Source: a virus. From it: a stretch of 36,353 nucleotides of DNA. Below, piece after piece: positions 159-35,195 of this stretch. The position numbers and the translations under genes are program-made. The stretch is from UHGV virus genome UHGV-0234394; one strand, written 5' to 3'. Each line of letters starts with the position of its first letter. Position 1 is the stretch's first letter. The notes below the pieces were generated by a model that was given only the letters and a program-made list of their open reading frames with translations, did no database searches and was not told the origin of the DNA.

Positions 159-1163
159 TTAATCCCCCGTGGACACTGCGTGGACACTTACGCCACCTTT
201 CAGCGGATTAAGGGCCACCGCATCCTGCAGGTAATCCGGTGCAAAATGCGCATATGCCATTGTTTGCTGAATGGTTGCGTGACCAAGAATCTTCTGAAGC
301 GCAATAATGTTTCCTCCGTTCATCACAAAATGGCTGGCGAACGTATGCCGCAGCACATGTGCAGCCTGGCCTTTTGGTAAATCGGGCTTAACTCTTTTCA
401 GCGCCAGGCAGAATTCCCGGTACTTCACCTCAAACAAACCGCCTGTTTCTCTGGTTTTGATCGCCTCACAAACTGCCTGCGAAATTGGCACTGTTCTCTT
501 CCGGCCATTTTTGGTTTCAAGAAACGTTACACGGTTATGAACTATCTGTTCACCACGAAGCTTACAAGCTTCACTCCAGCGCGCCCCTGTGCTTAAACAC
601 AAAAGCGCAACACGCCAGTAGTCGCCCTCCAGTGTATCGAGCAATAGCGCCACTTCCTTCTGTGACAGGAACGCCATTTCTCGTGGAGATACATAAAGAA
701 TAGAAATTCCCCTTACTGGATGTTCTGCATCCCAAAGACCTATTTTTTTCAGCACGGTAAACATTCCGGATAACCGATTCATGTACCTGTTAGCAGATGA
801 CGGTTTCAATCCTTCAGCTATCTTTTGAGAACGCCACGCGATAATTTTCAGCTTATCAAGATCCACAGCCTGCATATCAGCGCCAAGCTCATTGATTATG
901 TTGCGCAGTTGTTTTCGGTCTTCTTCCGCCTTACGCCTGTGCTGGCCGTGATACATCCACCACAACTCAAGCAAATCATTTAGCGTTCGACGATCACGGT
1001 AGCCCTGTATATATTCCCGCTTTTCAGCGTTCGCCATGATGTAGCGTTCAGTGGCCACCGCTACCGATTTTTTGTCAAATACCTTACGCACGCGCTTTCC
1101 CTTGCGTCCGTTCGGCCTGATGTCCAGCAAATAACGACCATCTTCGAGCTTCTTAATCGACAT
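159..1163 (-). CDS. int: tyrosine integrase (P2 Int family)
   Basis: Track ORF 159..1178; C-terminal region has the tyrosine-recombinase signature (HVLRHTFASH ... LGH ... Y); start moved to the ATG preceded by GGAGG (protein begins MSIKKLEDG). Confidence 0.9.
   Translation of the reverse strand: MSIKKLEDGRYLLDIRPNGRKGKRVRKVFDKKSVAVATERYIMANAEKREYIQGYRDRRTLNDLLELWWMYHGQHRRKAEEDRKQLRNIINELGADMQAVDLDKLKIIAWRSQKIAEGLKPSSANRYMNRLSGMFTVLKKIGLWDAEHPVRGISILYVSPREMAFLSQKEVALLLDTLEGDYWRVALLCLSTGARWSEACKLRGEQIVHNRVTFLETKNGRKRTVPISQAVCEAIKTRETGGLFEVKYREFCLALKRVKPDLPKGQAAHVLRHTFASHFVMNGGNIIALQKILGHATIQQTMAYAHFAPDYLQDAVALNPLKGGVSVHAVSTGD
169..193. repeat. candidate attL core (gtggacactgcgtggacacttacgc), overlapping the last codons of int
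   Basis: About 22 of 25 positions shared (one 2-nt gap) with 35173-35195; contains an internal tandem GTGGACAC motif. Confidence 0.5.
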
Positions 1164-1259
1164 TACGAAGCCCTCCAATGAACCGCTCTACAATTTCTCC
1201 AGCCTCTTTCCAGCAATAATCAGACCAGACAAAAAGCAGGTCTAACCAGTTTTCTGGCC

Positions 1260-1580
1260 TCAGCGGGATAATTTTTGGATTGTTTCGGTTGAAACGCGAT
1301 CTCCCTCCGAATTGCAGGAACCATCAAGAGAGAGAGCCGGAGAAATTTGCCCGACCTCCGGCATCGTTTCATCTGTTGATAACCAATAAGCATACTTCTT
1401 AAATTTAGGGTGTTTCGTAACCTTAAGTAAGGCACCCTCTGTTACTTGCTTCCCCCTCACCTCATAGTTAGTTACCGTCCCATAAGGCAGCCCAACACAA
1501 TCCGCAAACTCCTGGCGGGTCATACCTTCTGCTTCACGAATCAGGCGAAATTTTTCACCCATGCTTGACAAAGATGCCAT
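1260..1580 (-). CDS. C: immunity repressor, P2 C-like
   Basis: Product resembles P2 C (GLPYGTVTNYE, KFKKYAYWLSTDE, GQISPALS); same strand as int and divergent from cox as in P2; start at the internal ATG giving MASLSSMGEK is my choice and is uncertain. Confidence 0.8.
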   Translation of the reverse strand: MASLSSMGEKFRLIREAEGMTRQEFADCVGLPYGTVTNYEVRGKQVTEGALLKVTKHPKFKKYAYWLSTDETMPEVGQISPALSLDGSCNSEGDRVSTETIQKLSR

Positions 1581-1693
1581 ATCGGGCATATCCTCCATCG
1601 CAACATGCCACATCGGGCACAAACATAAAAGCACTCAAATAAGCCGATATAAGCCATTTTGAGCCATTCGAACGAATTAGGGAGATTACCACA
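1581..1693. promoter_or_regulatory. C/cox divergent switch region with direct repeats (candidate operators)
   Basis: ATCGGGCA direct repeat at 1581-1588 and 1611-1618; three 10-bp phased repeats AAGCCGATAT/AAGCCATTTT/GAGCCATTCG at 1641-1670 just upstream of cox. Confidence 0.4.
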
Positions 1694-1981
1694 ATGAGCG
1701 AATCAGAGCTTGGGGGGTTCATTCAGGTAGCACCATATCCACTTGAAGCGGTGCCATATCAACTATTCGCCAAGATGATCGGCCGCAAGGAATCCACAGT
1801 CAGAACCATGATTGACGCAGCAAAGCTACCGACAATTGATTTTGTGAAACCAGGTTCAGTAAAGACGCGTGCATCAGAAAACTGGGTATATCTGCCAGCA
1901 TTTAACGAAGGCATGCGCAAAGCGTTTTTTGAGCAACCGAAAGAACGCCGCGACGCATGGTTGTTGTGGCTGGGACTTTAG
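1694..1981 (+). CDS. cox: Cox-like excisionase / early-promoter regulator
   Basis: 95 aa; strong resemblance to P2 Cox (WVYLPAFNEG, DAWLLWLGL at the C-terminus); SD GGGAGA upstream. Confidence 0.85.
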   Translation: MSESELGGFIQVAPYPLEAVPYQLFAKMIGRKESTVRTMIDAAKLPTIDFVKPGSVKTRASENWVYLPAFNEGMRKAFFEQPKERRDAWLLWLGL

Positions 1982-1987
1982 TCATAA

Positions 1988-2194
1988 ATGACCAGCCATA
2001 TCATCAGCGCCATTCTGACCCTTGTTTTTATTGAGATAGGCGTAATAGAGATCTATTTGTTTCGCAAGTTAACGGGACATGAAGAACGCTTTATTGAACT
2101 CAGCATTGAATATATCGCCGCTTATACCAAAGGACTTTTCCCGGCAGCTATTGGGGCGATGTTTATAGCGTTTGTTATCTGGTTTATCGGGTGA
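1988..2194 (+). CDS. small hydrophobic early protein (68 aa), unknown function
   Basis: Track ORF; two hydrophobic stretches; tightly packed after cox. Confidence 0.45.
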   Translation: MTSHIISAILTLVFIEIGVIEIYLFRKLTGHEERFIELSIEYIAAYTKGLFPAAIGAMFIAFVIWFIG

Positions 2195-2233
2195 GAAACC
2201 TGACAACCCACAACTACTGCAATGAGGGTAATT

Positions 2234-2341
2234 ATGTGTGGCATGGACAAATTGGACCTTATGTTAATTGTAATACTATCAATTAACTTCGGTTACCTCT
2301 TAAGCGGCGCAATTCTCATGTGCGGAGGCAAACGAAAATGA
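2234..2341 (+). CDS. small hydrophobic peptide (35 aa, MCGMDKLDLMLIVILSINFGYLLSGAILMCGGKRK)
   Basis: ATG at 2234 preceded by GAGGGT; single TM-like stretch with basic C-terminus; stop overlaps next ATG (ATGA). Confidence 0.3.
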   Translation: MCGMDKLDLMLIVILSINFGYLLSGAILMCGGKRK

Positions 2342-2445
2342 ACCAGCAGTCCGCAAAACGTGAAAACAATGCGATGCGATTTAATCGCAAATATTTTGAG
2401 TTCGGCCTCTATGCCGGAATAATTAAATCTGTACAGAGTCTTTAA
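2338..2445 (+). CDS. small ORF (35 aa), translationally coupled
   Basis: ATG at 2338 overlaps the preceding stop; ends 1 nt before the ATG at 2447. Confidence 0.25.
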   Translation: MNQQSAKRENNAMRFNRKYFEFGLYAGIIKSVQSL

Positions 2446-2446
2446 C

Positions 2447-2788
2447 ATGAAACAGCAACGTAATTCACGCTTTCGCAATGGTGCAGAACGCCACGCTAAC
2501 CGTTTTGCTACCAGTGCATCACGCAGCAACATCCGCTACAGCCTGAGTGATACACACGCAACGCCGGATGGCTACCCAGTAAAACAAATCGGCGAGCATG
2601 CCTGGCTGATTGAGAAAGCTGGAATCGTGATCCACAAATGCCCACGCAATCCGTTTACCGGAAACCGCATTTTTGCTCTAAGCAGTGGCGACAATCAGTT
2701 CGGGCAGGATTTCACATTATACGAAGCACTTCGCACGGTTGATCGTCTGCTTCGCGGGCAAAGTTTTATTAAACAGGCTGATTTATAA
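2447..2788 (+). CDS. hypothetical early protein (113 aa)
   Basis: Track ORF; in series with the early operon. Confidence 0.5.
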   Translation: MKQQRNSRFRNGAERHANRFATSASRSNIRYSLSDTHATPDGYPVKQIGEHAWLIEKAGIVIHKCPRNPFTGNRIFALSSGDNQFGQDFTLYEALRTVDRLLRGQSFIKQADL

Positions 2789-2798
2789 CAGGTGCTTT

Positions 2799-3086
2799 AT
2801 GACCAAAGACCATGCACAAGGTGTATTTATCCGTTTTATTGATTTTCGCGGTGAACTGTTATTACGTGCATCCGCTATTGACGGAGTAACTCCGGCGGGT
2901 AAAAACGGAGCCGACGAAGCCACTTACGTTTATCTGAACGGCACGCGACTGCTTGTGGAACTTCCGTACCAGACCGTACGAGAAATCATTAGCGAAGCTG
3001 AAAAGGCACGCCAGGTTAATGGCGATGAACCCTATATCGAAATTATTTGTATGGATTCAGAAGCTGAAATACAGAAAGCAGATTAA
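2799..3086 (+). CDS. hypothetical early protein (95 aa, MTKDHAQGVF...)
   Basis: In-frame ATG at 2799 within track ORF 2685..3086, chosen to avoid overlap with the upstream gene. Confidence 0.5.
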   Translation: MTKDHAQGVFIRFIDFRGELLLRASAIDGVTPAGKNGADEATYVYLNGTRLLVELPYQTVREIISEAEKARQVNGDEPYIEIICMDSEAEIQKAD

Positions 3087-3097
3087 AGGGCGTTGTG

Positions 3098-3340
3098 ATG
3101 GGCAAAGAATATAAAACTCTCATTAACAAAGCACTTGAGCGTTTTTATTTTCGCTTAAGTGCATCAGGCGCTCATGCTGAACGTGCGGCCCGTGACTCAT
3201 TGACCAGAGCAATCCGAAGTCTGTATGACGTGGCTTTTTACGCTGATGATCTGGATGCACTTAACGAACTTTCCGAGCTGATCTGTGCCGCAGAGTGCGG
3301 GGAACATATTGAACCGTATAAGCTGGGGAATATCGCATGA
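3098..3340 (+). CDS. hypothetical early protein (80 aa)
   Basis: Track ORF 3095..3340; ATG at 3098 preferred. Confidence 0.5.
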   Translation: MGKEYKTLINKALERFYFRLSASGAHAERAARDSLTRAIRSLYDVAFYADDLDALNELSELICAAECGEHIEPYKLGNIA

Positions 3341-3450
3341 GTATATTTATCTCATGGCTTGTTCTGATTATTTCGGTGGCCTGCGCTATTGGGATTATGC
3401 GAATTATTCATTCAATAAAAAAGATTGAACGCTTTTTCACTGGCGAATAA
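3337..3450 (+). CDS. small hydrophobic peptide (37 aa, MSIFISWLVLIISVACAIGIMRIIHSIKKIERFFTGE)
   Basis: ATG overlaps the preceding stop (ATGA); single TM-like segment followed by a basic tail. Confidence 0.3.
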   Translation: MSIFISWLVLIISVACAIGIMRIIHSIKKIERFFTGE

Positions 3451-3535
3451 CAGAGCAAATAAAACCACAAATTAAATAAGAAAATGTAAAACAATCCGCA
3501 TTCGCGGAGGTATTCGCACACGCCAAGGAGGCGTA

Positions 3536-3739
3536 ATGGCAATTAAGCATTTTCCTGTCGTTCGTTTTACCTCCAGAGGGCGTGAATACGAAGTCGACGA
3601 ACGCCTGATTACCACAATCGACAAACACCGTTCAGAAAAGGATGCACATCACATCTATCTCACTGACGGCACTTACTTCTGCGCCACGAATGTGGTGCGG
3701 GTGAACCTTATCCGACAGGTACAGGAGTCACGCAGATGA
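3536..3739 (+). CDS. hypothetical protein (67 aa)
   Basis: Track ORF with GGAGG 7 nt upstream of the ATG. Confidence 0.55.
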   Translation: MAIKHFPVVRFTSRGREYEVDERLITTIDKHRSEKDAHHIYLTDGTYFCATNVVRVNLIRQVQESRR

Positions 3740-3981
3740 CCATTCTGGACTATATCGCCGCCAATCCGGGGTGTAGCGGTGGAGAAATCGCCGCAGCACT
3801 GAATACCCCAACCACAGCCATTAATGCGGAGTTACGCCGACTCTGGCGCAGCGGTTCAGTCATAAGAAAAGAGCGCAAAACAGGCGGTCGCTTTTCTTAC
3901 CAGATAAACCCGATGCCGTTCGGGTGCGGCAATCCACTTACCAACATGTTTAACCAGCTACTGAAGGAAGCCAGAGCATGA
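3736..3981 (+). CDS. hypothetical protein (81 aa), possibly DNA-binding
   Basis: Track ORF; start overlaps upstream stop; helix-turn-helix-like impression only. Confidence 0.5.
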   Translation: MTILDYIAANPGCSGGEIAAALNTPTTAINAELRRLWRSGSVIRKERKTGGRFSYQINPMPFGCGNPLTNMFNQLLKEARA

Positions 3982-4277
3982 GCGCCATCAACCACCAGGA
4001 ATTACGCGAACTGGCGACTGACCTGCAACGAATGGCAACGCCTCAAAAATTACTGGCGTTTCGCGCAATGCTCTCGCCGTCTGCTGTGCTGGCGCTGCTG
4101 GATGAGCTGGAGCACGCCAGAACCACACCTCTCGCCATTCGCCTGACGCTCCGTCATGAAATCGAGGATTTCTGCGCGACGTTGGAGGCGCCAGGCGAAC
4201 CGGAAACGCCAGAAGCAATACAGCAAGAGCTGCTGCAACGCATTGACAAGGTTTTTGATTTTTTTCTGAACCACTAA
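3978..4277 (+). CDS. hypothetical acidic protein (99 aa)
   Basis: Track ORF; ATGA start/stop overlap with the upstream gene. Confidence 0.5.
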   Translation: MSAINHQELRELATDLQRMATPQKLLAFRAMLSPSAVLALLDELEHARTTPLAIRLTLRHEIEDFCATLEAPGEPETPEAIQQELLQRIDKVFDFFLNH

Positions 4278-4289
4278 GAAACCAGAACA

Positions 4290-4600
4290 TGCACACACAA
4301 AAAAACCGCTTGCCATGCCGCAATCAGTCAGGTTACATTTCCGCTGCACCTCACAAAACGGGTGCCGGGTTTCGCAGCCTGCTGACTACACAAGCGCACA
4401 ACCGCGCCAGCGGTTTTTTTGTGCGTACTGTATTGCCACGTTTTTTTCGCGTCAGAATTATGGCGGGGCGTACGGGGCCGACTTCGGTCGGGCCGGGTTC
4501 TTGTGTAGCCGGTACTGCGAACCTCGTACGTCTCGCCACCCACAGTTTCGCAGCTCTGGATGGTGAGTTTTCACAACTTACTACACAAGGGGCCACACCA
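4290..4600 (+). other. structured non-coding region (candidate regulatory RNA or terminator cluster)
   Basis: No credible ORF; perfect 15-bp inverted repeat cacaaaaaaaccgct (4296-4310) / agcggtttttttgtg (4409-4423); T7 runs; GC hairpin with a TTCG loop at about 4476-4496. Confidence 0.35.
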
Positions 4601-4830
4601 TGGCAAACCGCAAACCACACCGCGCTATCGCGGAGCGTCGTCACATCCAGACTGAAATCAACCGCAGACTTTCCCGCGCATCACGCGTCGCGCAAATCAT
4701 GCACATCAATATGCTGCATGAGCGCAGCCACGCACTATCAAACATTTATTCCGCCTCTGTTTTCAGCTATCTGGCGGATGATCTGCACGAGCTTCAACAG
4801 CTCATCCAGCAGCAAAACAAACTCCATTAA
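4600..4830 (+). CDS. hypothetical basic protein (76 aa)
   Basis: Track ORF. Confidence 0.45.
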   Translation: MANRKPHRAIAERRHIQTEINRRLSRASRVAQIMHINMLHERSHALSNIYSASVFSYLADDLHELQQLIQQQNKLH

Positions 4831-4902
4831 CTCCTGTTCCGGGCCTTTCCTGCACCTTGCGGCGGGAGGCCTTCGCACATCTGTAACAAGAGGATTGCCG
4901 CA

Positions 4903-5268
4903 ATGATTCTCGCCAACGACTTTCTTGAATACCTGCTCAACACAGAACGTGATCTTGCCGCTCGCGTGCGTGATCGTTATGACATGTACCTGAAATCCCT
5001 GCCTGTACCGCAGCTCGCTGACGGAAAGATTGTTATTGATGGTCGCTACATGATTGACAGCCACGAGGGAAATTACAGGCTTTACCGCATTGAAGGTGGC
5101 ACCCCGTCCGTTATTGGCATTTACCAGCGCCCATCCTCTGCAATCGTCGATGTGATTGCCGACAGCATCCGCATCACACATCGCCATGCCGACACAGAAG
5201 ACACCATGCTGGAAATTCAGCGGCTGGCTACAGTCTGCCGCGACACCCTGAATGGCATGACGAAGTAA
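4903..5268 (+). CDS. hypothetical protein (121 aa)
   Basis: Track ORF with AAGAGGA upstream; immediately precedes gene A. Confidence 0.5.
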   Translation: MILANDFLEYLLNTERDLAARVRDRYDMYLKSLPVPQLADGKIVIDGRYMIDSHEGNYRLYRIEGGTPSVIGIYQRPSSAIVDVIADSIRITHRHADTEDTMLEIQRLATVCRDTLNGMTK

Positions 5269-5274
5269 ATCACT

Positions 5275-8097
5275 ATGACGGCAGAGTACATCAGGGACTG
5301 GCAACAACCGCGCCACGCAGTGGGGCGTGAAGGAACGGGGATCCCCGCTCCTGAATCCGCGCTTTCCTCCTGGCTGGATGCCTACCGGGTAGAGAACGAG
5401 CACCGCCAGGAAATGGCTGATGCGGCGTTCTCCGCAACGCCGCTGGGCAACCTGATTAATAAAAGCCTGGACGCACAGGAAAAACAGGACAAAACCATCA
5501 CACTGGCAGGAGATGCCAGAAAACAGGCACGCGGCGCGGTGGATGAAGCCATGGCCTCGCTGCGCCTGCTGCCGTCCTATCTGCGCGATCCGCTTATTCG
5601 CCACCTCTCCTTCCTGTGCAAAAAACAGGAAGCCGATCGTCAGAAAGGCAAAAAGAGCTGGCAGGCTGAACGCTACGCGCGCGGAAACCTGCGCAAAATA
5701 TTCGAACGTCTGGAGCGCACCGATCACCGCTGGCTGACACAGGGTTATCGCTCCCTTGCCGGACGCGAACGCCTGGACGATTTGCTTTACCTGCCGCAGC
5801 TCAACAAACACCAGATACAGACACTGGCCACCATGACGGCGGCGATGTTCAGCAGCACCTTCGAAAAACTCTGCGATGGCTTTGGCGCGACCGATGGCGA
5901 ACTGACCATGGATGTAACACTGAAGGCGTATCAGATGCTGGCCCGCATGGCGTTACACCTGCACGCCATGCCTCCACATTATGACGCACTGACAACAGAC
6001 AAAGACCGGAGGAACGAACCGGACACGGAGCTGCTGCCGGGCGCAATCCTTCGCCTGACCTGTGCAGAATGGTGGAAACGCAAACTGTGGCTGTTACGTT
6101 GCGAGTGGAGAGAAGAACAACTCCGCGCCGCCTGTCTGGTTTCCAGAAAAACATCGCCCTATCTGAGCCAGGACGCGTTAAGCGAGTTTCGCGCACAGCG
6201 CGAGAAAACACGCGATTTCCTGAAAAGTTTCATGCTGGAAAATGAAGACGGGTTCACGATTGATCTCGAGACGGTGTATTACGCGGGAGTAAGTAACCCG
6301 GTTCACCGTAAGGCAGAAATGATGGCCACCATGAAGGGGCTGGAACTTCTGGCCGAAGCCCGTGGCGACAAAGCGGTGTTTCTGACTGTCACCTGCCCGT
6401 CAAAATACCACGCCACAACAGAGAACGGTCATCCGAATCCCAAATGGAACGGGGCCACCATGCGCGACTCCAGCGATTACCTGGTTAACACGTTTTTTGC
6501 GGCGGTCCGCAAAAAACTGAACCGCGACGGTCTTCGCTGGTATGGCATCCGCACGGTGGAGCCTCACCATGACGGCACCGTGCACTGGCATATGATGGTC
6601 TTTGCTCATCCGGAAGAAATCGACAGCATCGTGGCCATCACCCGCGATATTGCCATTCAGGAAGACCGCCACGAGCTGGGCAATGATATTACTCCGCGCT
6701 TTAAGGCGGAGTATGTCGACGGCTCAAAAGGCACACCAACCAGCTATATCGCGACCTACATCGGAAAGAACCTGGACAGCCGCGCCGTGGATGGCATCGA
6801 CCCGAAAACGGGCAAGCCACGCGTTGACCACGAAACCGGAAAATCAATGGCCGAGAGTGTGGAGCGCGCCATCGGCTGGGCGCGCCTTCATCGGGTCCGC
6901 CAGTTCCAGTTCTTTGGCATCCCCTCCCGTCAGGTGTGGCGTGAACTGCGCCGCCTTGCCAGCCAGATGGCACGCAACCCGGAAGGCCCGCAACGACTGA
7001 AAGATGACGCAATGGATGCGGTACTCGCTGCCGCCGATGCCGGGTGTTTTGCCACCTACATTGAAAAACAGGGCGGCGTACTTGTTCCACGCAAAGACTA
7101 CCTGATTCGCACCGCCTACGACCTCGCAGATGAGCTGAATGATTACGGCGAACAGAGCGTACAGATTTACGGGATCTGGTCACCACTCATCGGGGAATCC
7201 TCCCGTGTGTGCACGCATCCGGATAACTGGAAACTGGTAAGACGTAAACCGGAAACGGAAGACAGCGCCCGCGAAAATGGTTTTGACCTTCAGGGCGGCC
7301 CTGCCGCCCCTTGGACTCGTGGCAATAACTGTCCCCGTGTACAGGAAACGGACAACAACGGGACAGAACAGCCGGAAGAACGGCCAGCACCGTGGCCGCA
7401 GCTCCCTGACGGCGTTGATGTGGATGAATGGATGCGCTCACTGAAACGGCACGAACGCCGGGCGCTGATGCGTTCGCTTCGTGACAAACAGGCAAAAAAC
7501 AGCAGTGATGAAATGCAGAGCTGGACACAGAGCCGCAAACAGCAGCGGCCTTTGCCTGATAACCACGAATTACTCGCTAAAGAATGGCGGGAGTCTGCTG
7601 AATCTCTCGGCCTGCATATCGGTGAACAACAGATGCAGCACCTGTTACGGGGCGGCAGTCTGTACGTTGACGGCAGCATCATTGCACCGCAGGGATTTGA
7701 AATTGTACGCAAACCGGATACTCGCCCGGACAGCCGAATCACGCAGCTCTGGCAGCGCCTGAGCCGTAATCACGGCGTAAGTAGCACGGAGATCCGCCAT
7801 AACCCGGTCGCCAGCTATCTGGAACAGCTGGAGGCATCAGACCCCGAAGCCGCCGCACGCCTGGCATCCACACTTCAGCAGGACCAGAACACCATGAAAA
7901 CACCCGTTACCGTGCTTTCTGACATGCTGCGCGCCATCCGCGACGCAGAGCACGCACAGAGAATCAGTGAAACCACTGAACGCGCCCGCCGCAAAGCAGA
8001 CCTGCTGCGGGGTGGCCTGACCAGTGGAAACAAAAAACAGACAGAAACGGGACTCACGAATCCCGTAAATGAGCAAAAAACGCGCAGCGATATATGA
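5275..8097 (+). CDS. A: rolling-circle replication initiator endonuclease (P2 gpA family), long form of 940 aa
   Basis: HUH-type motif in TVHWHMMVFAH and paired tyrosines in YIATYIGK; position after the early genes as in P2. Confidence 0.85.
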   Translation: MTAEYIRDWQQPRHAVGREGTGIPAPESALSSWLDAYRVENEHRQEMADAAFSATPLGNLINKSLDAQEKQDKTITLAGDARKQARGAVDEAMASLRLLPSYLRDPLIRHLSFLCKKQEADRQKGKKSWQAERYARGNLRKIFERLERTDHRWLTQGYRSLAGRERLDDLLYLPQLNKHQIQTLATMTAAMFSSTFEKLCDGFGATDGELTMDVTLKAYQMLARMALHLHAMPPHYDALTTDKDRRNEPDTELLPGAILRLTCAEWWKRKLWLLRCEWREEQLRAACLVSRKTSPYLSQDALSEFRAQREKTRDFLKSFMLENEDGFTIDLETVYYAGVSNPVHRKAEMMATMKGLELLAEARGDKAVFLTVTCPSKYHATTENGHPNPKWNGATMRDSSDYLVNTFFAAVRKKLNRDGLRWYGIRTVEPHHDGTVHWHMMVFAHPEEIDSIVAITRDIAIQEDRHELGNDITPRFKAEYVDGSKGTPTSYIATYIGKNLDSRAVDGIDPKTGKPRVDHETGKSMAESVERAIGWARLHRVRQFQFFGIPSRQVWRELRRLASQMARNPEGPQRLKDDAMDAVLAAADAGCFATYIEKQGGVLVPRKDYLIRTAYDLADELNDYGEQSVQIYGIWSPLIGESSRVCTHPDNWKLVRRKPETEDSARENGFDLQGGPAAPWTRGNNCPRVQETDNNGTEQPEERPAPWPQLPDGVDVDEWMRSLKRHERRALMRSLRDKQAKNSSDEMQSWTQSRKQQRPLPDNHELLAKEWRESAESLGLHIGEQQMQHLLRGGSLYVDGSIIAPQGFEIVRKPDTRPDSRITQLWQRLSRNHGVSSTEIRHNPVASYLEQLEASDPEAAARLASTLQQDQNTMKTPVTVLSDMLRAIRDAEHAQRISETTERARRKADLLRGGLTSGNKKQTETGLTNPVNEQKTRSDI

Positions 8098-8173
8098 AGC
8101 GCGCACAAAACAGGCAAAAGCGGGATTTAAAAATCCTGTAACCGATTAATTAATCAACATAAGGAAAAGCGAC

Positions 8174-8338
8174 ATGAAAATTTGTATCGACGACGGCTCC
8201 ACCAACATCAAGCTGGCATGGACGCACTGTCGCCCTGCATGGAGAAAAACAATAAAAAAGATGAATAACTGCTCATGTCAGACGCGCTGCGGGCAAGTCT
8301 GGCACCCTGCCCTGTTTCCGCAAAGGCTGTTGTCTTAA
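8174..8338 (+). pseudogene. remnant of a ParM/StbA-like actin-type ATPase gene (N-terminal 16 codons only)
   Basis: 54-codon ORF begins MKICIDDGSTNIKLAW, matching the ParM N-terminus (MLVFIDDGSTNIKLQW) as I recall it, then diverges. Confidence 0.35.
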
Positions 8339-8358
8339 CACGACAGAGTATGCCAGCA

Positions 8359-8766: not shown

Positions 8767-9122
8767 CAGTTATCCTCAAGCTTTTTAATGATATCCGCAT
8801 GTTTTTCTCTTGTACGCTTCATTGCATCTTCAAAAGACAATCCTTTTTTTCTCTGTGCGACAAGAGCTGGATGACGTTTTTCCAGATCTCTCACTGCATT
8901 TATTAAGAGTGGTTGCTTCATTTTGTTTATTTGATCCCGCAGTTTTTTGGTTTTGCCAAGGACAGCCCGTATTTCAGGACTAAGATCAGAACCAGCAAGA
9001 ACAACATCCTTCCCTCCCTGCGCAGTGATAACGACACTGCCACCGGAAGAAAGGTAATCCAGAATTTCACTCAGGTTCTCACGAAATTCATCATCAGTTA
9101 CAGTTTTCATATTCATTTCCAT
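8766..9122 (-). CDS. Phd/YefM-like antitoxin
   Basis: 118 aa; N-terminal region (FRENLSEILDYLSSGGSVVITAQGGKDVVL) has the Phd/YefM pattern; first gene of the two-gene operon. Confidence 0.65.
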   Translation of the reverse strand: MEMNMKTVTDDEFRENLSEILDYLSSGGSVVITAQGGKDVVLAGSDLSPEIRAVLGKTKKLRDQINKMKQPLLINAVRDLEKRHPALVAQRKKGLSFEDAMKRTREKHADIIKKLEDN

Positions 9123-28741: not shown

Positions 28742-28958
28742 GCCAGCTAACCACTTCGCCGGGCGTCATCATGAAGATTTCGGCGGGCGACCAGTTAAAA
28801 ATGGCGGCGATATCTGCCACCAGATCTTCGATGTGCTCAAAGCACACCAGGGTGATTACGCTGCCGTCTCCTGCACGCTCTTCGCGCCAGAGTCTGGCTC
28901 GCTCATAAAATTTACAGCCACAGCGCACAACTGAATAAAATCGCGTGACGACATTTTT
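28692..28958 (-). CDS. E' frameshift extension of the tail assembly chaperone (E+E')
   Basis: Open in the -1 frame relative to E from 28958 downward; only entry point is the A7 run at 28954-28960 inside E. Confidence 0.5.
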   Translation of the reverse strand, partial: KNVVTRFYSVVRCGCKFYERARLWREERAGDGSVITLVCFEHIEDLVADIAAIFNWSPAEIFMMTPGEVVSWRERAALRSGNADNEDS

Positions 28959-29230
28959 TTAATCATCACTTCATCCAGTCGTGGCGAGGTCACGCGAGGC
29001 AACAGCGTGAACATGGTATCCGCTTTCAGATTCAGCACATCAGACAGCGACAGACCACGCAGGGATCCAGCCTGTTCAATAGCCCCGGTGATCTCCACAT
29101 ACGTGATTTTTTCGCCACCACGCTCAATTGGTCGGGTCAGTTTTACGCCACGTTCGACAGCCATAACCTCACCTGCCGTCACATCATCCGCCACGGTGTT
29201 ATTCCGGGTTTCAGTATCGATGTCTTTCAT
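28856..29230 (-). CDS. E: tail assembly chaperone (P2 E-like)
   Basis: 124 aa between tail tube and tape measure genes; contains the A7 slippery run near its 3' end. Confidence 0.7.
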   Translation of the reverse strand: MKDIDTETRNNTVADDVTAGEVMAVERGVKLTRPIERGGEKITYVEITGAIEQAGSLRGLSLSDVLNLKADTMFTLLPRVTSPRLDEVMIKKMSSRDFIQLCAVAVNFMSEPDSGAKSVQETAA

Positions 29231-29285
29231 CAGTTGTCTCCTTTTCAGTCAGAGGCGACGCACTGCGCCGCCTGCATATTACTTA

Positions 29286-29798
29286 TCAGCCAAGCCCAAG
29301 CGCGGAACGGATGCGGTCAGGCACAATGTCCTTGCCGTCCTTCCGGTAGATGTGGTTCAACAGGTCGATTTCCCACAGCGGGCGATCGTTAACGCTCAGC
29401 TTGTAGTAGGTGTTTTTGACAGCGTAAGTGTGTGATGTGGCTTCGCCCTGTTTGGCTTCCCCCATATCAATTTCCGTCACACGCCCGCGCATCTCGATTT
29501 CATACAGATCGCTTTCTGCATCGGTGTAGTATTCACCCGCAAAACGCAGCAGCGTGCCGTCAATCGTGCCGCCATATTTAAGGAACAGCGCACGAACAGC
29601 TCCCCCCATGACAAAACTCGCATCAAGTGCGGAGTCGTCCAGACCGAGATCAATACTTACTGCCCCCATCATGCCACCACCACGATAGCTGTCGGTTTTG
29701 CGCGTCAGTTTGGGCGGCGTGACGGATGTCACTTTACCCACTTCGTTTTCACCATCCACAAACAACGTAAAAAAGCGAAGATGTTTTGGTACAGCCAT
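29286..29798 (-). CDS. FII: tail tube protein (P2 FII-like)
   Basis: 170 aa; position after sheath gene. Confidence 0.8.
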   Translation of the reverse strand: MAVPKHLRFFTLFVDGENEVGKVTSVTPPKLTRKTDSYRGGGMMGAVSIDLGLDDSALDASFVMGGAVRALFLKYGGTIDGTLLRFAGEYYTDAESDLYEIEMRGRVTEIDMGEAKQGEATSHTYAVKNTYYKLSVNDRPLWEIDLLNHIYRKDGKDIVPDRIRSALGLG

Positions 29799-30982
29799 CA
29801 GGCACCTCCCAGCACCGCAAATGCGGGACCAAAGAATTCATCAGTAAACGACTGGTAAAGCTCCATGTCTTCCAGTGGCGGAACGGGCGTATATTTGTAG
29901 CGAATACGCACACGTCCCTGACGTAAATTCGTGGTGCCGTTATCCACCACGTCATACCAGCACTCCGCGCCAATCAGTTTCCCGGCAGTAACCAGCGAAT
30001 CCAGTTTTGCCCTGATGGCGCTGATAACATCCTTCACGTTCGCAGGTGTCAGTGGACTGTCGATGGTTTCAAACTGCGCTTCCGCAATTGAATCAGCCAG
30101 CACCTGTGCGGTTCGGGTATACACCTCAAAGATGTAGGCGTTCGTTTCCGGTGTGCGGTTGCCCCAGAAGCGGAACCCGTTGCGACGAATAATGGTCGTG
30201 ATTTCTTTGTTGTTGAGGCTGTTGGCATCGCTGTCTTCGGCCTGCAACGACCAGAACACATGCCTGGACATTCCCAGCACATTTTTAACCGGAACGTTGG
30301 ACAGCGATTTGTGCCAGCCCTGCTCATGGTCAATGTACGCACGAAGGCCGCACGCATAAGCAGGCGCGGGGAACGTTTCGTTTTTGCCACTTTTCGGGTT
30401 GTAGGCGATGAAGTCCGGCCATAAGAGCATCACCTCACGTTCGTTGAATTTCTGGCGGTAGGTAATCGCCTCAGCCATCGTGTTACAGCCGTGACATGAG
30501 GCATACACAAACGCGCGCAGTTTACCTGCAATCACGCACAGGGATTTTGTTACAGCCTCCGTGTCCAGCTCCGGCGCGGCCAGAATACGCGGACGGTATC
30601 CGATGCTTTCATCCTGCTCTGCAACAAGCAGCGCATACATCCCCGTATAGCTGCCGTCATCCTCAGAACCACCGATAACCAGTTGATCCTGCGTCTTTCC
30701 GTCTTCTTCTTTGTGTTCAGCCACGCGAACGACGATCACCTTTGTGCTCACCTGGTCTGCGATGGCCTTAAGCGCACGATAAAGCGTCCCCGTTGTCCCG
30801 CATTTTCCCAGCACGTCATTGACGCGGGTCAGCAGTGTGGGCTTATTCAGCGGGAACAGCTTCGCGTCCGCATCATCCGCCGTTGCCACGATACCGATAA
30901 CGCTGGAATCAACATCGTTAATCGCTGTTACCAGGTCGGTATTTTCCGTAACACGGGCACCATGAAAACGAGTTTCACTCAT
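29798..30982 (-). CDS. FI: contractile tail sheath protein (P2 FI-like)
   Basis: 394 aa; extensive resemblance to P2 FI (KLRAF, WPDF, EQGWHK, LIRR-GFRFWGNRT, YTPVPPLE motifs). Confidence 0.9.
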   Translation of the reverse strand: MSETRFHGARVTENTDLVTAINDVDSSVIGIVATADDADAKLFPLNKPTLLTRVNDVLGKCGTTGTLYRALKAIADQVSTKVIVVRVAEHKEEDGKTQDQLVIGGSEDDGSYTGMYALLVAEQDESIGYRPRILAAPELDTEAVTKSLCVIAGKLRAFVYASCHGCNTMAEAITYRQKFNEREVMLLWPDFIAYNPKSGKNETFPAPAYACGLRAYIDHEQGWHKSLSNVPVKNVLGMSRHVFWSLQAEDSDANSLNNKEITTIIRRNGFRFWGNRTPETNAYIFEVYTRTAQVLADSIAEAQFETIDSPLTPANVKDVISAIRAKLDSLVTAGKLIGAECWYDVVDNGTTNLRQGRVRIRYKYTPVPPLEDMELYQSFTDEFFGPAFAVLGGA

Positions 30983-31139
30983 AGCTTCAGCCCCTTGTAT
31001 CCGTTAAATGATTCGGCAACAATCATCACCCACCACGCGCGTAATCTCACCCCTGCGCCGTTCTTCCGACCCAGAGACAACAAAAAGCAGTAACCCCCTC
31101 CGCACGCACATGCGACCATGCCGCACAGGGAGGGAACAG

Positions 31140-32249
31140 ATGACCGACACCACCATGCAATTGCTCAGTCAGAGCACAGACCCCGTGAAAATGCCGGATT
31201 TTGATATTCTCGCGGAGGGTAAAACGCTGTCAGGCGTGGCAGAGCGCCTGATGAGCCTGTCACTGACCGACAACCGGGGATTTGAGGCGGACCAGCTCAC
31301 CATCACGCTGGATGATGCGGATGGTCAGTTGCAGCTACCGCCACGGGGCGCGCGCCTGACGGTTCTCATTGGCTGGAAAGGAGAACCGCTGACAGAAAAA
31401 GGCACTTACATTGTTGATGAAATCGCTCACGAAGGACCGCCGGACAGGCTGACTGTTTCAGCCAGAAGCGCAGATTTTCGGGATGAATTTAACGTTAAAC
31501 GTGAGGTGTCCTGGCATGATGTGACCGTTGAGCGTGTGGTATCCGCCATCGCTCATCGGTATGGTCTGAAACCGCAAATCAGCGAAATGCTGATGGATAT
31601 CGAAATCGACCACGCCGACCAGACCGAAGAAAGCGACATGTCCTTCCTTACGCGCATGGCGGAAATGCTGGGCGCAATCACCACGGTAAAAAGCGGTAAT
31701 CTGTTATTCATCATGCCCGGCGGTGGCGTGAACGCGCAGGGCCAGCCGTTGCCATCGTTTGCCATCACACGCAGCAGCGGCGATCGCCATCAGTTCCGCA
31801 TTGCTGACCGCGAAGCGTATACGGGGGTACGCGCTTACTGGCTTGATCTTAATTACGGGAAAAAGAAAAAAGTCAGCGTGAAACGCCGCAAACCGCCAAA
31901 ACCCAAAAAGGAGAAAAGCAGCAGCCGTGAAGGTGATTATATGGAAGGCGCGGAAGGCAATGTGTTTGTGTTACGCAAGACCTATCAGAACGAACAGGCA
32001 GCAAGACGCGCAGCGGCGGCAAAGTGGCAGCAGCTACAACGCGGAGCCGCATCATTTTCCATCACGCTGGCGCGTGGACGTGCAGAACTCTACCCCGAAA
32101 TGCATGGCACGGTAACAGGATTTAAAAGCGAGATTGATAATCAGGACTGGATTATTGCGAAAGCCGAGCACACCATTGATAACAGTGGCTTTACCACGCA
32201 GCTTGAGCTTGAAGCAAAAATTCCGGAATGGATCGTAGAAACAGAATGA
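31140..32249 (+). CDS. D: tail/late-control protein D
   Basis: Track ORF 31008..32249; ATG at 31140 with GGAGGG upstream; about 369 aa; position before ogr as in P2. Confidence 0.8.
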   Translation: MTDTTMQLLSQSTDPVKMPDFDILAEGKTLSGVAERLMSLSLTDNRGFEADQLTITLDDADGQLQLPPRGARLTVLIGWKGEPLTEKGTYIVDEIAHEGPPDRLTVSARSADFRDEFNVKREVSWHDVTVERVVSAIAHRYGLKPQISEMLMDIEIDHADQTEESDMSFLTRMAEMLGAITTVKSGNLLFIMPGGGVNAQGQPLPSFAITRSSGDRHQFRIADREAYTGVRAYWLDLNYGKKKKVSVKRRKPPKPKKEKSSSREGDYMEGAEGNVFVLRKTYQNEQAARRAAAAKWQQLQRGAASFSITLARGRAELYPEMHGTVTGFKSEIDNQDWIIAKAEHTIDNSGFTTQLELEAKIPEWIVETE

Positions 32250-32371
32250 GTAAATTAGATGCATTAGCTCAGTCATGAGTTTACTGATTACGTACGGCAC
32301 AGAAGCAGACCTGATAGTTTGCTCTGTGCCAGAAACGGACATTGCCGACATCATAATCGACACAAATTACA

Positions 32372-33157
32372 TCAATCACCTATGTGATTACGTTCTATAT
32401 ATCTTACAATCTTCTCTAAAGATTCAAATCCCCACCTCTGCATAGCATGTGGGAATTCTGTATATTCATAATCTTCTATGGTGAGATCCCATGTACTTTT
32501 CTTGAATTCACACTGATATAATCGCACAGTCTTGTTTAAAACCAACCCTTCTAACACACTGCTTTTCTTAATGATTTTGTCAATGTCTTTATTGTTAATC
32601 CCAATGTAGATAGCTGTTACCGAACTTAAATCAGTTATCTTGTCAATTAAAATATTTTCTTGCTTTTGTAATAGCCCCACTCGCTTTATTATTCTAACTT
32701 CTTCTTCATATTTCCAATGCAATGATTTAGTAAGCAATAATTTACTAATTACATCAGCGCTATAAATGTTTTCTTGACTGATTTTTAGTTTACTTTTTAT
32801 TCGACTCTCTAAATAATTAATGTCACCTTTCTGTGCCGTAATTAGGCATTTTTCTTCATCATCAAACCCTGCCCTTTCTGTGTCAATTGCTACAACAAAC
32901 CCCTGATGTTTATCAGCATAATGTGACCACATCAGTACATTGAGAGGATTTTTAGAAAGGCATAAGCAGGCAACATTTTGATTGATCTCCCCCCTCATAG
33001 CTAATGGTTCAAGCGATTCACCATCTAATGAAAGTTCATAGCCATAGCTTTCAAAAGGATCATTAAACTCACTATATGGAGTGAATTTTATAGAGATGTA
33101 ACCATCTTTAAAAAATCGTTCCAATGATGTCTTATCTATATATTTATACAGAATCAT
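32372..33157 (-). CDS. AT-rich accessory protein of unknown function (about 261 aa), N-terminal LYKY motif
   Basis: Track ORF 32372..33208 begins with TTG; first ATG gives MILYKYIDKTSLERFF; strongly AT-rich versus flanking D and ogr; convergent with D. Confidence 0.6.
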   Translation of the reverse strand: MILYKYIDKTSLERFFKDGYISIKFTPYSEFNDPFESYGYELSLDGESLEPLAMRGEINQNVACLCLSKNPLNVLMWSHYADKHQGFVVAIDTERAGFDDEEKCLITAQKGDINYLESRIKSKLKISQENIYSADVISKLLLTKSLHWKYEEEVRIIKRVGLLQKQENILIDKITDLSSVTAIYIGINNKDIDKIIKKSSVLEGLVLNKTVRLYQCEFKKSTWDLTIEDYEYTEFPHAMQRWGFESLEKIVRYIERNHIGD

Positions 33158-33352
33158 AATATATTCAGAATTAATTATAGGTGTTATCAGTATACAGTAC
33201 TTCAACAAGTAGATGTAAAGATCCCATTTAAACGTTCCTCCTCAATACGCGGATTAAACAAATTAAAGCATCTTACTCAAAATGGACCATCAGTTGGATT
33301 TAGAGCCAACACAACCTAGAATAGCGGCAGCACCACGTTAAGGGAGGTCGCT

Positions 33353-33613
33353 ATGTTCCGTTGTCCGCTTTGTGGCGCATCTGCCCGTATCCGCACCAGT
33401 CGTCCGGAAAATGATTCAAACACCGTGCGACAAAAGTATTACCAGTGCAACAACCTGGAATGCGGCGTATGCTTCTCAACACTGGAAGCTTTCCATAAAT
33501 TCACATCGAAACACGCCTCCGGCGTTCACTCTTCAGAAGGTATCCCGTGGCATGAGCTGCCAGCTTCACACAGGGGAAACAATCAGATGAGTTTGCCTTT
33601 ACCTCAGAATTAA
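33353..33613 (+). CDS. ogr: late transcription activator, Ogr/Delta zinc-finger family
   Basis: MFRCPLCG...YYQCNNLECG four-Cys pattern as in P2 Ogr; GGGAGG SD. Confidence 0.85.
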   Translation: MFRCPLCGASARIRTSRPENDSNTVRQKYYQCNNLECGVCFSTLEAFHKFTSKHASGVHSSEGIPWHELPASHRGNNQMSLPLPQN

Positions 33614-33701
33614 CAGGCAGAATTGCCGGAGTAACAAAAAAGCGATAGATTACGCGCGGGTGCCTTTCGGCTGATGGTCGGAGGGAATACCCGAAGGCCA
33701 G

Positions 33702-33938
33702 ATGTGGAAAGGCCCCGGAAAACATTTCTGTTTAACCGAGGCCCTAACACTTCTTACCTTCGCAAGTAGAAGGTTAGCGCCTCTCCTCTCAGGAGACAAG
33801 CGTTATGACGCAAATTCCGTTAAAAACCCTGTTACTTTGCATAACTGCGGTAGCGATAATCTGGATCCTCCACACATCACCGTGCGAGTTACGATTCAGG
33901 TTTGCTGGCACGGAAATTGCGGCATTCTTACTATGTAA
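33702..33938 (+). CDS. mok: mok-like leader ORF overlapping hok
   Basis: 78-codon ORF in a different frame spanning nearly all of the hok-like gene, the arrangement seen in hok/sok loci. Confidence 0.45.
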   Translation: MWKGPGKHFCLTEALTLLTFASRRLAPLLSGDKRYDANSVKNPVTLHNCGSDNLDPPHITVRVTIQVCWHGNCGILTM

Positions 33939-33945
33939 TAAGTAA
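33805..33945 (+). CDS. hok: Hok/Gef-family type I toxin (46 aa)
   Basis: MTQIPLKTLLLCITAVAIIWILHTSPCELRFRFAGTEIAAFLLCNK: TM helix plus the conserved C-E-(I/L)-R...E-(V/I)-A-A-F core of Hok/Gef; AGGAGA SD 8 nt upstream. Confidence 0.8.
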   Translation: MTQIPLKTLLLCITAVAIIWILHTSPCELRFRFAGTEIAAFLLCNK

Positions 33946-34033
33946 GATAACCGCGACGGGGGAGTAATCCCCCGTCAATCGGTTGCTAAGGTTGGTCGAA
34001 ACGGCACCCTATCTCACAGACATGAACAACAAA

Positions 34034-34065
34034 CCCGCAGCGTAAAAACTGCGGGTTTTCTTTTT
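34034..34065. terminator. intrinsic terminator (functional on both strands) followed by a second perfect hairpin at 34066-34089
   Basis: cccgcag-loop-ctgcggg with T-rich runs on both strands; adjacent 10-bp stem ggtgccctca/tgagggcacc. Confidence 0.65.
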
Positions 34066-34112
34066 GGTGCCCTCACAAATGAGGGCACCATACATAAGCA
34101 ATAGGCATAACA

Positions 34113-34147
34113 GATCAATGCAATAAATCCGATCGATAAAAACGATC
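34113..34147. promoter_or_regulatory. cluster of three GATC sites upstream of com (two inside a GATCGAT direct repeat)
   Basis: GATC at 34113-34116, 34131-34134, 34144-34147; 50-80 bp upstream of the com start. Confidence 0.5.
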
Positions 34148-34194
34148 GATTTGTTATCATATCGGCAGCAGTAACCACACAAGAGGTGCCGCAA

Positions 34195-34392
34195 ATGACG
34201 CAAAATGTACGATGCAAAAATTGCAACAAACTACTTGCCCGCGCCTCATTTCACTACATTGAAATAAAATGTCCGCGCTGCAAAACACTTAACCAGATAA
34301 CGAGAGCCATCGAGCACCCCACACACATGAGGAGTTATGACCGTGGGGATCGCAATCCAGCACCAACCAGCACATACACCGGAACACACTAA
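34195..34392 (+). CDS. com: Com-like zinc-finger translational regulator
   Basis: MTQNVRCKNCNKLLARASFHYIEIKCPRCK...EHPT closely parallels Mu Com (RCKNCNKLL, IEIRCPRCK, EHPT); AAGAGG SD; 3' end overlaps the methyltransferase start. Confidence 0.8.
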   Translation: MTQNVRCKNCNKLLARASFHYIEIKCPRCKTLNQITRAIEHPTHMRSYDRGDRNPAPTSTYTGTH

Positions 34393-35128
34393 GGTTTATC
34401 AGACTGACAATGCCACGCTCTGTCGTGGGAATGCGCTGGAAATATTGCCGCTGATTGAGCCAGAAAGCATTGATGCCTTAATCACTGACCCGCCTTACAG
34501 TTCGGGTGCGACACACAAGGCCGGACGCACCAACCAGGGCAGCCATGCAAAATATCTGAACGGCGAGAACCTTCACCGCTTTGATGGGTTCGCGGGTGAA
34601 AACATGGACGCCCGTTCGTGGGCTTACTGGACACAATTATGGATGGCACAGGCACACCGCGCAGTCAGGCCGGGCGGTTATGCCCTGGTATTTACTGACT
34701 GGCGACAACTACCAGCTTTAACCGATGCGTTTCAGGCCAGTGGCTTTACATGGCGCGGCATCATTGCGTGGAACAAAGGGAGGGGGTCACGAACACCACA
34801 TACCGGGTATTTCCGGCATCAGTGCGAATACATCGTCTGGGGCAGCAAAGGCCATTTAGATAAATCGCCTTCGGGACCGTTCGACGGCTGCATGACGTTC
34901 CCGGTTATCTCGTCAAAGAAAATGCACCCGACCGGAAAACCAGAAGAACTAATGGCGGAACTGGTCAGGACTGTGAATAGTGGCGGAACAGTCCTTGATC
35001 CTTTTATGGGGTCAGGGACAACGGGTGTGGCTGCACTGAAAGCAGGACGCAAATTTATTGGTATAGAAACCAGTGATCATTATTTTGATGTAGCAACACA
35101 ACGGCTCAAAACGGCGATCGAACCATAA
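34337..35128 (+). CDS. DNA methyltransferase, beta-class (DPPY before FxGSGT), N6-adenine or N4-cytosine
   Basis: ITDPPYSS near the N-terminus and LDPFMGSGTTGVAAL near the C-terminus; alternative GTG start at 34343 has better SD spacing. Confidence 0.8.
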   Translation: MTVGIAIQHQPAHTPEHTKVYQTDNATLCRGNALEILPLIEPESIDALITDPPYSSGATHKAGRTNQGSHAKYLNGENLHRFDGFAGENMDARSWAYWTQLWMAQAHRAVRPGGYALVFTDWRQLPALTDAFQASGFTWRGIIAWNKGRGSRTPHTGYFRHQCEYIVWGSKGHLDKSPSGPFDGCMTFPVISSKKMHPTGKPEELMAELVRTVNSGGTVLDPFMGSGTTGVAALKAGRKFIGIETSDHYFDVATQRLKTAIEP

Positions 35129-35172
35129 GACAAAGCCCGCAATGTTGCGGGCTTACTCTACCTCTCGAAAAT

Positions 35173-35195
35173 GTGGTCACTGCGTGGACATACGC
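35173..35195. repeat. candidate attR core (gtggtcactgcgtggacatacgc)
   Basis: Matches 169-193; lies between the methyltransferase terminator and the flk promoter region. Confidence 0.5.

Follow-up and report, generated by a model that had tools for sequence, protein, structure and literature searches.

Where does this prophage end? The window analyzed here, i.e., the whole 36,353-nt stretch of DNA, carries a P2-like prophage of ~35.3 kb that adjoins the host gene flk and has int at its left end. A sequence-only reading of the window had recognized this arrangement, including the hok and com-methyltransferase cargo inside the prophage, and our comparisons bear it out. That reading also set the prophage boundaries at an imperfect 23-bp repeat located in the 3' end of int and upstream of flk, and considered that a second, 11-bp repeat could mark an older junction. 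Both copies of the longer repeat are present as described and do belong to the prophage's attachment sites; however, they are not its junctions. Comparison of empty-site Escherichia coli, lysogens, and two phage genomes with intact attP sites places the crossover in a different, 20-bp core, TTTTCATCAACAAGGATTTT, and sequence comparisons indicate that the 23-bp repeat very probably represents two sets of P2-type Int arm sites flanking that core. Coordinates of the relevant features are collected in Table 1.

Table 1. Features of the window bearing on integration of the prophage, in order of position
Feature	Position	Strand	Basis or remark
P' arm spacer, from off-window attL core to P' arm sites	1..158	.	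only in 304 lysogens; contiguous with core in phage attP
int, P2-type tyrosine integrase, 334 aa	159..1163	-	Pfam Int_N + Phage_integrase
P'-arm putative Int sites, two direct GTGGACA heptamers 11 bp apart	169..186	+	P2 alignment, consensus
hok 3' hairpin, GACGGGGGA-GTAA-TCCCCCGTC	33955..33976	+	fold
Variable cargo slot, between hok module and P arm	34020..35163	+	BLAST breakpoints versus relatives with other cargo, 34017-34065 and 35164
com	34186-34392		in cargo slot
N6/N4 DNA methyltransferase	34337-35128		in cargo slot
Terminal hairpin	35128-35159		in cargo slot
P-arm putative Int sites, GTGGTCA-ctgc-GTGGACA	35173..35190	+	P2 alignment
Putative IHF site TATCAATAAATTA, matching WATCAANNNNTTR	35213..35225	+	read from sequence; between P arm and core
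Orphaned native pdxB start (GTG, 35259-35257)	35215..35259	-	reads 14 codons into P arm, then stop
attR core TTTTCATCAACAAGGATTTT	35237..35256	+	20 bp common to attB, attL, attR, attP
flk	35358..36353	+	host gene right of insertion

The attachment core and the true junctions

The left copy of the long repeat, gtggacactgcgtggacacttacgc, spans window positions 169-193 and the right copy, gtggtcactgcgtggacatacgc, 35173-35195. They share an exact 13-mer (174-186 and 35178-35190) and overall differ by one mismatch and a 2-nt indel. Their length alone is unremarkable, since direct repeats matching exactly over 13 bp or more number 25 in the window (maximal matches). As had been read from the sequence, the left copy encodes C-terminal residues of Int, which ends in GVSVHAVSTGD followed by a stop codon at 159-161. 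Because the trailing "tacgc" of the long repeat varies in relatives, what matters is the 18-mer at 169-186 and 35173-35190.

We compared the window with the empty sites of E. coli K-12 DH10B and a spread sample drawn from the ~5,100 non-lysogens. Results showed that empty-site homology on the flk side begins at 35237, i.e., 41 bp to the right of the right-hand repeat, while on the pdxB side the empty-site match runs only to the end of the same 20-mer core, so that the junctions coincide with neither repeat. The core, which is the complement of pdxB codons 2-8, occurs in attB, attL, attR, and attP, and host homology from either side stops at its far edge. It is found once in the window (attR); the attL core lies off-window, 24-43 bp to the left of window base 1. 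Window 1-193 in its entirety was confined to the lysogens (304 of 5,426 genomes, or ~5.6% of complete E. coli genomes). It is phage DNA, because it and the P arm are part of one unbroken sequence in the virions of phages Chuche (PP925824) and Xuanwuvirus P884B11 (NC_049391), whose genomes carry the intact attP of the same prophage type. Indeed, attP of Chuche, P884B11, and Citrobacter rodentium phage ΦSM (Shae_phiSM, OR565851) reads P arm, core, 24 nt, and window base 1 onward, unbroken, with the two repeat copies 276-277 bp apart.

These observations bear directly on the proposal that the 23-bp repeats are the attL and attR cores, with crossover inside the repeat and a prophage running from 169 to 35195. 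Their direct orientation near both ends and their 13-nt exact match fit that proposal, but the repeat is absent from attB (K-12), occurs twice in attP (277 bp apart), and lies away from the points at which host homology breaks. Moreover, window 1-168 and 35196-35236 are phage DNA missing from empty sites, and it is a different 20-mer that is common to all four attachment sites. The proposal is thus left with virtually no probability. The presence of both copies in attP and of none in attB is what characterizes arm sites rather than a core. With boundaries drawn at the repeats, the right junction would be off by 41 bp and the left by ~190 bp, and both the interruption and rebuilding of pdxB and the off-window attL junction would be missed. 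In prophage-boundary calling, terminal direct repeats may pick out the arm-type sites of the integrase over its core.

Within the 20-bp core, position 35242 is polymorphic (P884B11 has C for A). In attP, and in 4 of 4 lysogens examined, the SNP travels with the P arm, from which we infer that strand exchange is confined to 35243-35256; the exact cleavage points would lie in this interval. A pair of inverted core-type half-sites, AAATCTTTGTT (35225-35235) and AACAAGGATTT (35245-35255), was considered and rejected: the left one varies among phages of the same specificity, and a crossover between the two conflicts with segregation of the SNP at 35242. No convincing inverted core-type half-sites could be defined around the inferred crossover.

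Probable integrase arm-type sites on both sides of the core

Lambda Int recognizes core-distant arm sites through its N-terminal domain, DNA bending is supplied by IHF, and integration distributes the arm sites between attL and attR. The present system probably shares this arm/core logic, whereas the consensus, number, and spacing of the arm sites differ, and its directionality factor would be a Cox-type protein rather than Xis.

The attP of phage P2 (NC_001895) is annotated with Int P arm, IHF, core, Cox, and Int P' arm, and the same order of elements is found here. As in P2, GTGGWCA-type direct repeats occur in pairs, one pair per arm, with an 11-bp period; the P' site falls inside the final int codons, the IHF block is situated between P arm and core, and a terminator hairpin immediately precedes the P arm. 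The P'-arm site aligns with the P2 protein_bind feature "Int P' arm" (TGTGGACActgTGTGGACA), which likewise overlaps the 3' end of int, and the P-arm site aligns with the feature "Int P arm" (TGTGGTCAatgTGTGGACG); BLAST also returned a P2 match over the P arm, at 35171-35219. The consensus of P2-type Int arm sites is tgTGGaCa (PMC3448106), and it is matched by cGTGGACActgcGTGGACA (169-186) and tGTGGTCActgcGTGGACA (35173-35190). Similarly, the putative IHF site sits within a block, GATAYAAATCCTTTTATATCAA, that aligns with the annotated IHF footprint of P2. The published description of ΦSM leaves arm sites unmentioned (PMC6456863), and the present comparison adds an explicit, sequence-based assignment of the probable arm and IHF sites of a ΦSM-type attP.

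The 18-mer in the P' arm encodes S-V-H-A-V-S-T on the minus strand, and its conservation consequently cannot be separated from selection acting on the C-terminus of Int; the P-arm copy, being non-coding, is free of that constraint. In the P arm, Chuche, P884B11, PhiR44_2, ΦSM, and 500465-2 all keep the heptamers, whereas spacer and flanking sequence differ. The tandems of Chuche and P884B11 attP lie 64 bp before and 212 bp after the start of the core, both on the plus strand, and in phage WΦ a core of another sequence is likewise flanked by this tandem on either side. A functionless chance match of the 18-mers, for which the abundance of direct repeats of at least 13 nt in the window might speak, has a negligible probability: the tandem GTGGWCA-N4-GTGGWCA occurs exactly twice in 36 kb, both times on the plus strand, versus 0.06 expected, it is conserved in 8 phages with three core specificities and varying flanks, and it coincides with the annotated P2 Int sites.

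The integrase itself, annotated as a phage integrase in lysogens, is 50% identical to P2 Int overall (BLASTP). Residues 1-42, i.e., the N-terminal, arm-binding part, are highly similar to P2 and far more conserved than the core-binding segment. Y11, D14, and R16 are the same as in P2 Int; we equate them with the Y/D/R discriminators of PMC3448106 (positions 16, 19, and 21 of the alignment there). Cox, Ogr, and the remainder of the prophage are P2-like as well.

The tandem heptamers might be bound not by Int but by some other product of the phage, for instance Cox or the immunity repressor. Int binding is predicted here from homology to P2, and in P2 it is in the P' arm that Cox acts, both of which leave some room for this reading. 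However, the homologous P2 sequences are annotated as Int sites, with a separate Cox footprint, and the motif is missing from the C-cox switch region (1560-1700), the stretch on which both the repressor and Cox have to operate. It is also common to heteroimmune phages that differ in Cox and C. We therefore consider a binder other than Int improbable. Cox boxes were sought in the P' arm with the P2 consensus (TTAAAG/CNCA) and with k-mers that also occur in the C-cox switch region; none was identified, so that Cox boxes, unlike those of P2, are unrecognizable here. The switch region contains TAAGCC, TAAGCC, and TGAGCC at a 10-bp period (1640-1665); the only element that it shares with the P' arm is one TAAGCCG at window 135, which is unconvincing as a Cox box.

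Taken as arm sites of Int, the tandem heptamers would give an attP with a pair one helical turn apart on each side of the core, the P-arm set ~64 bp upstream of it and the P'-arm set ~212 bp downstream, in the last int codons. On the P2 model, Int would use its N-terminal domain for the arm sites and its core-binding and catalytic domains for the core, and IHF would bend the P arm at 35213-35225, giving the intasome that carries out integration. Each prophage end would then retain one arm set, and both sets would be needed, together with Cox, for excision.

Interruption and rebuilding of pdxB

The true junctions fall within the first codons of pdxB, and the core/attB accordingly consists of pdxB 5' codons here versus locI in P2. 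The P' arm also differs from that of P2: its sites are ~212 bp from the core compared to 116 bp, nearly double, and the arm, longer by ~100 bp, contains a replacement ribosome-binding site and start for the host gene. The phage-borne TTG is in frame with pdxB and yields a hybrid reading frame, (M)SETEKGL-KILVDENMPY, preceded by an AAGGAG ribosome-binding site at window 13-8 on the minus strand, in the P' arm spacer; this TTG and AAGGAG would replace the start severed from pdxB by integration. The spacer also contains an inverted repeat at 98-132.

Both the attB and the proposed restart had been described before, in the near-identical phage ΦSM, and the finding is in this respect ordinary. ΦSM was shown experimentally to integrate at ATCCTTGTTGATGAAAA in K-12 pdxB, its lysogens are prototrophic, and a TTG/AAGGAG restart of pdxB was proposed (Magaziner et al., 2019; PMC6456863). 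We found the same core, arms, and P' arm in ΦSM, with 96.5% identity over the int region and P' arm, and on its sequence the present prophage can be classed as a ΦSM-type, pdxB-integrating Xuanwuvirus. The 17-bp site reported for ΦSM is included in the core, where identity with E. coli attB extends over 20 bp; beyond correct annotation, the significance of these additions is small.

Since int is transcribed towards pdxB and no intrinsic terminator was recognized between the two, pdxB in lysogens could be driven in part by read-through of the lysogenic Pc-C-int transcript of the prophage, bringing vitamin B6 synthesis under phage control, although we regard this as unlikely. Int binding at the P' site, in the 3' end of its own gene, might modulate both, and the enlarged P' arm may possibly be more than a repair patch. 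A promoter scan for the rebuilt pdxB gave one weak consensus match, which is downstream of the TTG start and hence uninformative.

The 11-mer, the hok hairpin, and the cargo slot

The 11-bp repeat TAATCCCCCGT is present at 160-170, where it comprises the int stop codon and last codons; its second copy is at 33965-33975, one base off from the 33964-33974 originally given. The suggestion that this copy is an older, attR-like junction, to the right of which the com-methyltransferase cargo was added later, draws on a real feature, namely a variable cargo slot to the right of hok in which relatives carry genes annotated as TagO-like or hypothetical. In ΦSM, for example, a TagO-like and a hypothetical gene, rather than com-methyltransferase, lie between hok and the P arm. 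A cargo slot with hok plus com-methyltransferase, between ogr and the P arm, is a further difference from P2. Nevertheless, the 11-mer is at chance level: direct repeats matching exactly over 11 bp or more number 289 in the window (maximal matches), and 199 of these are no longer than 11 bp. Its second copy is the loop and 3' arm of the hok 3' hairpin, which is conserved in six relatives, including P88, and GCAA takes the place of GTAA in the loop of the Chuche, P884B11, and P88 hairpins, breaking the 11-mer; thus Chuche, with the same attP and the same hok, com, and methyltransferase cargo, retains a match of only 10 nt. Furthermore, BLAST against relatives with other cargo placed the breakpoints at 34018-34065 on the left, 43-90 bp further right than the 11-mer, and at 35164 on the right, and neither an arm heptamer nor a core-like sequence occurs near 33965. 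An older junction at the 11-mer is consequently very improbable.

A search of Rfam returned C4 and isrK only, elsewhere in the window, and nothing at the hok region or att sites. Outside the shared attP, Chuche and P884B11 are mosaic with respect to the prophage, with 64-78% coverage and ~94% identity over the window. TUM2820, a close relative, is 100% identical over 33950-35260; the prophage it carries exceeds this one by ~1.95 kb, and there is one additional A in its P' arm.

Prophage junctions and the pdxB core

The sequence-only reading had placed the prophage boundaries at an imperfect 23-bp repeat (169-193 and 35173-35195); however, comparison with the empty host site (attB) showed that the junctions lie elsewhere. 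Of 5426 complete E. coli genomes, just 304 contain window 1-193, and in each of them it adjoins a phage integrase. The flk side was present in all genomes, with homology in non-lysogens starting at window position 35237 and overlapping the start of pdxB. When searched from the pdxB side, 5,122 genomes matched only as far as the last T of a shared core, and 303 ran on into phage DNA. A three-site comparison of attB from K-12 DH10B (...ggcatATTTTCATCAACAAGGATTTTcacgtttg...), the left prophage end (attL) of lysogen 67-1 (...ggcatATTTTCATCAACAAGGATTTTtaaccctttttcagtctctgacaa, then window base 1) and the right end (attR) in the window (...ctttgttTTTTTCATCAACAAGGATTTTcacgtttg...) therefore identified the common core as the 20-mer TTTTCATCAACAAGGATTTT. 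The core was found only once within the window, and the prophage measures about 35.28 kb from core to core. In TUM2820, a close relative among the lysogens, the right end was 100% identical to the window and attL was likewise the same as in 67-1.

The excised form (attP) is represented in Escherichia phage Chuche (PP925824) and Xuanwuvirus P884B11 (NC_049391), where sequence ending at window 35256, 24 nt and window 1 onward form a single unbroken stretch; the same stretch is likewise continuous in Citrobacter phage ΦSM (OR565851). Since the repeated element occurs twice in attP and is absent from attB, it is an arm element and no crossover site. The circular ΦSM record, OR565851.1, also repeats 8 bp (ACAAGGAT) at both ends, within the att core, probably an artefact of how the deposited sequence was linearised.

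Position 35242, within the att core, is polymorphic, being C in attP of P884B11-type phages and A in the window. The C was present in attR of 66 genomes, but attL kept the host A in all four C-type lysogens checked, which argues that 35242 stays with the P arm and that strand exchange occurs to its right, with a predicted exchange point within 35243-35256. By analogy with P2 and lambda-type heterobivalent integrases, Int would bridge arm and core sites, the P arm would be bent by IHF, and core-by-core recombination would split attP, leaving one arm set at each prophage end; this would explain why "terminal repeats" had been seen.

The core is complementary to codons 2-8 of pdxB, whose native start (GTG, 35259-35257) is stranded at attR and reads just 14 codons, VKILVDEKNKDLIY and a stop, into the P arm. 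The pdxB promoter region is also left at attR, and the orphan frame (35215-35259, minus strand) is antisense to the methyltransferase end. At attL, a phage-borne AAGGAG (window 13-8, minus strand) and an in-frame TTG just off-window give a reading frame for a hybrid product, (M)SETEKGL-KILVDENMPY..., versus the native (M)KILVDENMPY.... The int gene and P' arm of ΦSM are 96.5% identical to the window. The ΦSM site was published as the 17-bp ATCCTTGTTGATGAAAA, 6 bp inside pdxB, with the TTG and AAGGAG already noted and lysogens that grow on minimal medium; arm sites were not discussed (PMC6456863). E. coli AVS0068 carries a SNP at the position equivalent to window 7, adjoining the phage-borne pdxB ribosome-binding site (ctaagTctcc versus ctaagGctcc), and AAGGAG is kept.

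The long repeat and probable P2-type arm sites

Both copies of the long repeat were confirmed as reported (gtggacactgcgtggacacttacgc at 169-193 and gtggtcactgcgtggacatacgc at 35173-35195), and 169-193 does code for the end of Int (int CDS 159-1163, minus strand, terminating in ...GVSVHAVSTGD and a stop). The copies have an exact 13-mer in common. Repeat length alone is no proof, given that the window has 289 maximal exact direct repeats of 11 bp or longer, including 25 that reach 13 bp or more. GTGGWCA-N4-GTGGWCA, however, occurred exactly twice in the window, both times on the plus strand, versus 0.06 occurrences expected by chance; it is this internal tandem structure, not length, that marks out the long repeat. 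The P arm is non-coding, and its heptamers were invariant in Chuche, P884B11, PhiR44_2, ΦSM and 500465-2, whereas the 4-nt spacer and flanks varied. The trailing "tacgc" falls among these variable positions.

Coordinates of attachment-site features in the window and in the P2 RefSeq annotation
Feature	Source	Coordinates	Sequence
Core in attR	Window	35237-35256	TTTTCATCAACAAGGATTTT
Core in attL	Window coordinates, off-window	-43 to -24	TTTTCATCAACAAGGATTTT
P-side arm sequence	Window	35173-35190	tGTGGTCActgcGTGGACA
P'-side arm sequence	Window	169-186	cGTGGACActgcGTGGACA
Putative IHF site	Window	35213-35225	TATCAATAAATTA
Int P arm	P2	24293-24320	TGTGGTCAatgTGTGGACG
IHF	P2	24324-24357	
attP core	P2	24356-24383	
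Cox	P2	24399-24472	
Int P' arm	P2	24470-24496	TGTGGACActgTGTGGACA

In P2, too, the Int P' arm extends into the 3'-terminal part of int. A multiple alignment of the attP sites of P2, WΦ, Chuche and P884B11 with the window attR and one lysogen's attL placed the tandems in register on both arms and showed that the block GATAYAAATCCTTTTATATCAA is kept beneath the P2 IHF footprint, whereas the cores were unrelated. The P2 P arm gave a BLAST match to window 35171-35219, and the putative IHF site of the window fits WATCAANNNNTTR, the IHF consensus. The window Int is 50% identical to P2 Int. Its N-terminal arm-binding segment is strongly conserved and its core-binding segment, the determinant of site specificity, has diverged, a pattern to be expected of integrases that share arm recognition but differ in attB. 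Taken together, these comparisons indicate that the long repeat represents predicted P2-type Int arm sites on either side of a core in pdxB. Such an arrangement is standard knowledge for phages of this family and has already been published for a near-identical phage.

The 11-mer and the cargo slot

An 11-mer, TAATCCCCCGT, had been suggested either to be a chance match or to mark an older junction, with cargo added later. Its first copy is at 160-170 as described, but the second lies at 33965-33975, one base from where it had been placed. The former consists of the last three codons of int plus its stop and directly adjoins the first heptamer. The latter falls in a 9-bp hairpin immediately after hok, where it is formed by the GTAA loop plus the 3' arm. 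Relatives, P88 among them, retain this hairpin. Its loop reads GCAA in Chuche, P884B11 and P88, which shortens the match to 10 nt, even though Chuche agrees with the window in both cargo and attP. The stretch from the hok module to the P arm (~34020-35163) is a slot with variable cargo: in the window it carries com and an N6/N4 DNA methyltransferase, and in ΦSM, PhiR44_2, 500465-2 and P884B11 different genes, annotated TagO-like or hypothetical. Every cargo comes with a terminator hairpin of its own. The left breakpoint of the slot falls at 34018-34065 and the right one at 35164, which leaves 9 bp to the P-arm heptamers; the 11-mer coincides with neither, and the surroundings of 33965 contain no arm or core motif. 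Since its length is common among repeats in the window, one copy belongs to the hok hairpin and the breakpoints are elsewhere, the 11-mer was rejected as a junction and is regarded as a chance match.

Prophage identity and additional elements

The prophage in the window is a P88/ΦSM-like mosaic of the Peduoviridae. Compared with known phages, the window showed 64-85% coverage at 91-95% identity, and Int, Cox, Ogr, Hok, Com and the methyltransferase were confirmed by Pfam. In the early region, adjacent matches at Rfam gathering level to isrK (4346-4420, plus strand; 64 bits) and C4 antisense RNA (4456-4543, plus strand; 83 bits) form a predicted P1/P7-type antisense immunity element. A 16-nt inverted repeat with 88% complementarity (GGGCAATACTGAAAAA / TTATTCAGTATCGCCC) occupies 98-132, within the P' arm and just beyond the stop codon of int. 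On the strand of int it is not followed by a run of T. It may act as a stem-loop at the 3' end of int or as a site for protein binding. Candidate operators for Cox and the repressor are three direct repeats with a 10-bp period (TAAGCC / TAAGCC / TGAGCC, 1640-1665) just upstream of cox and two ATCGGGCA repeats (1582-1619). In the P' arm, TAAGCCG is present once, at 135-141.
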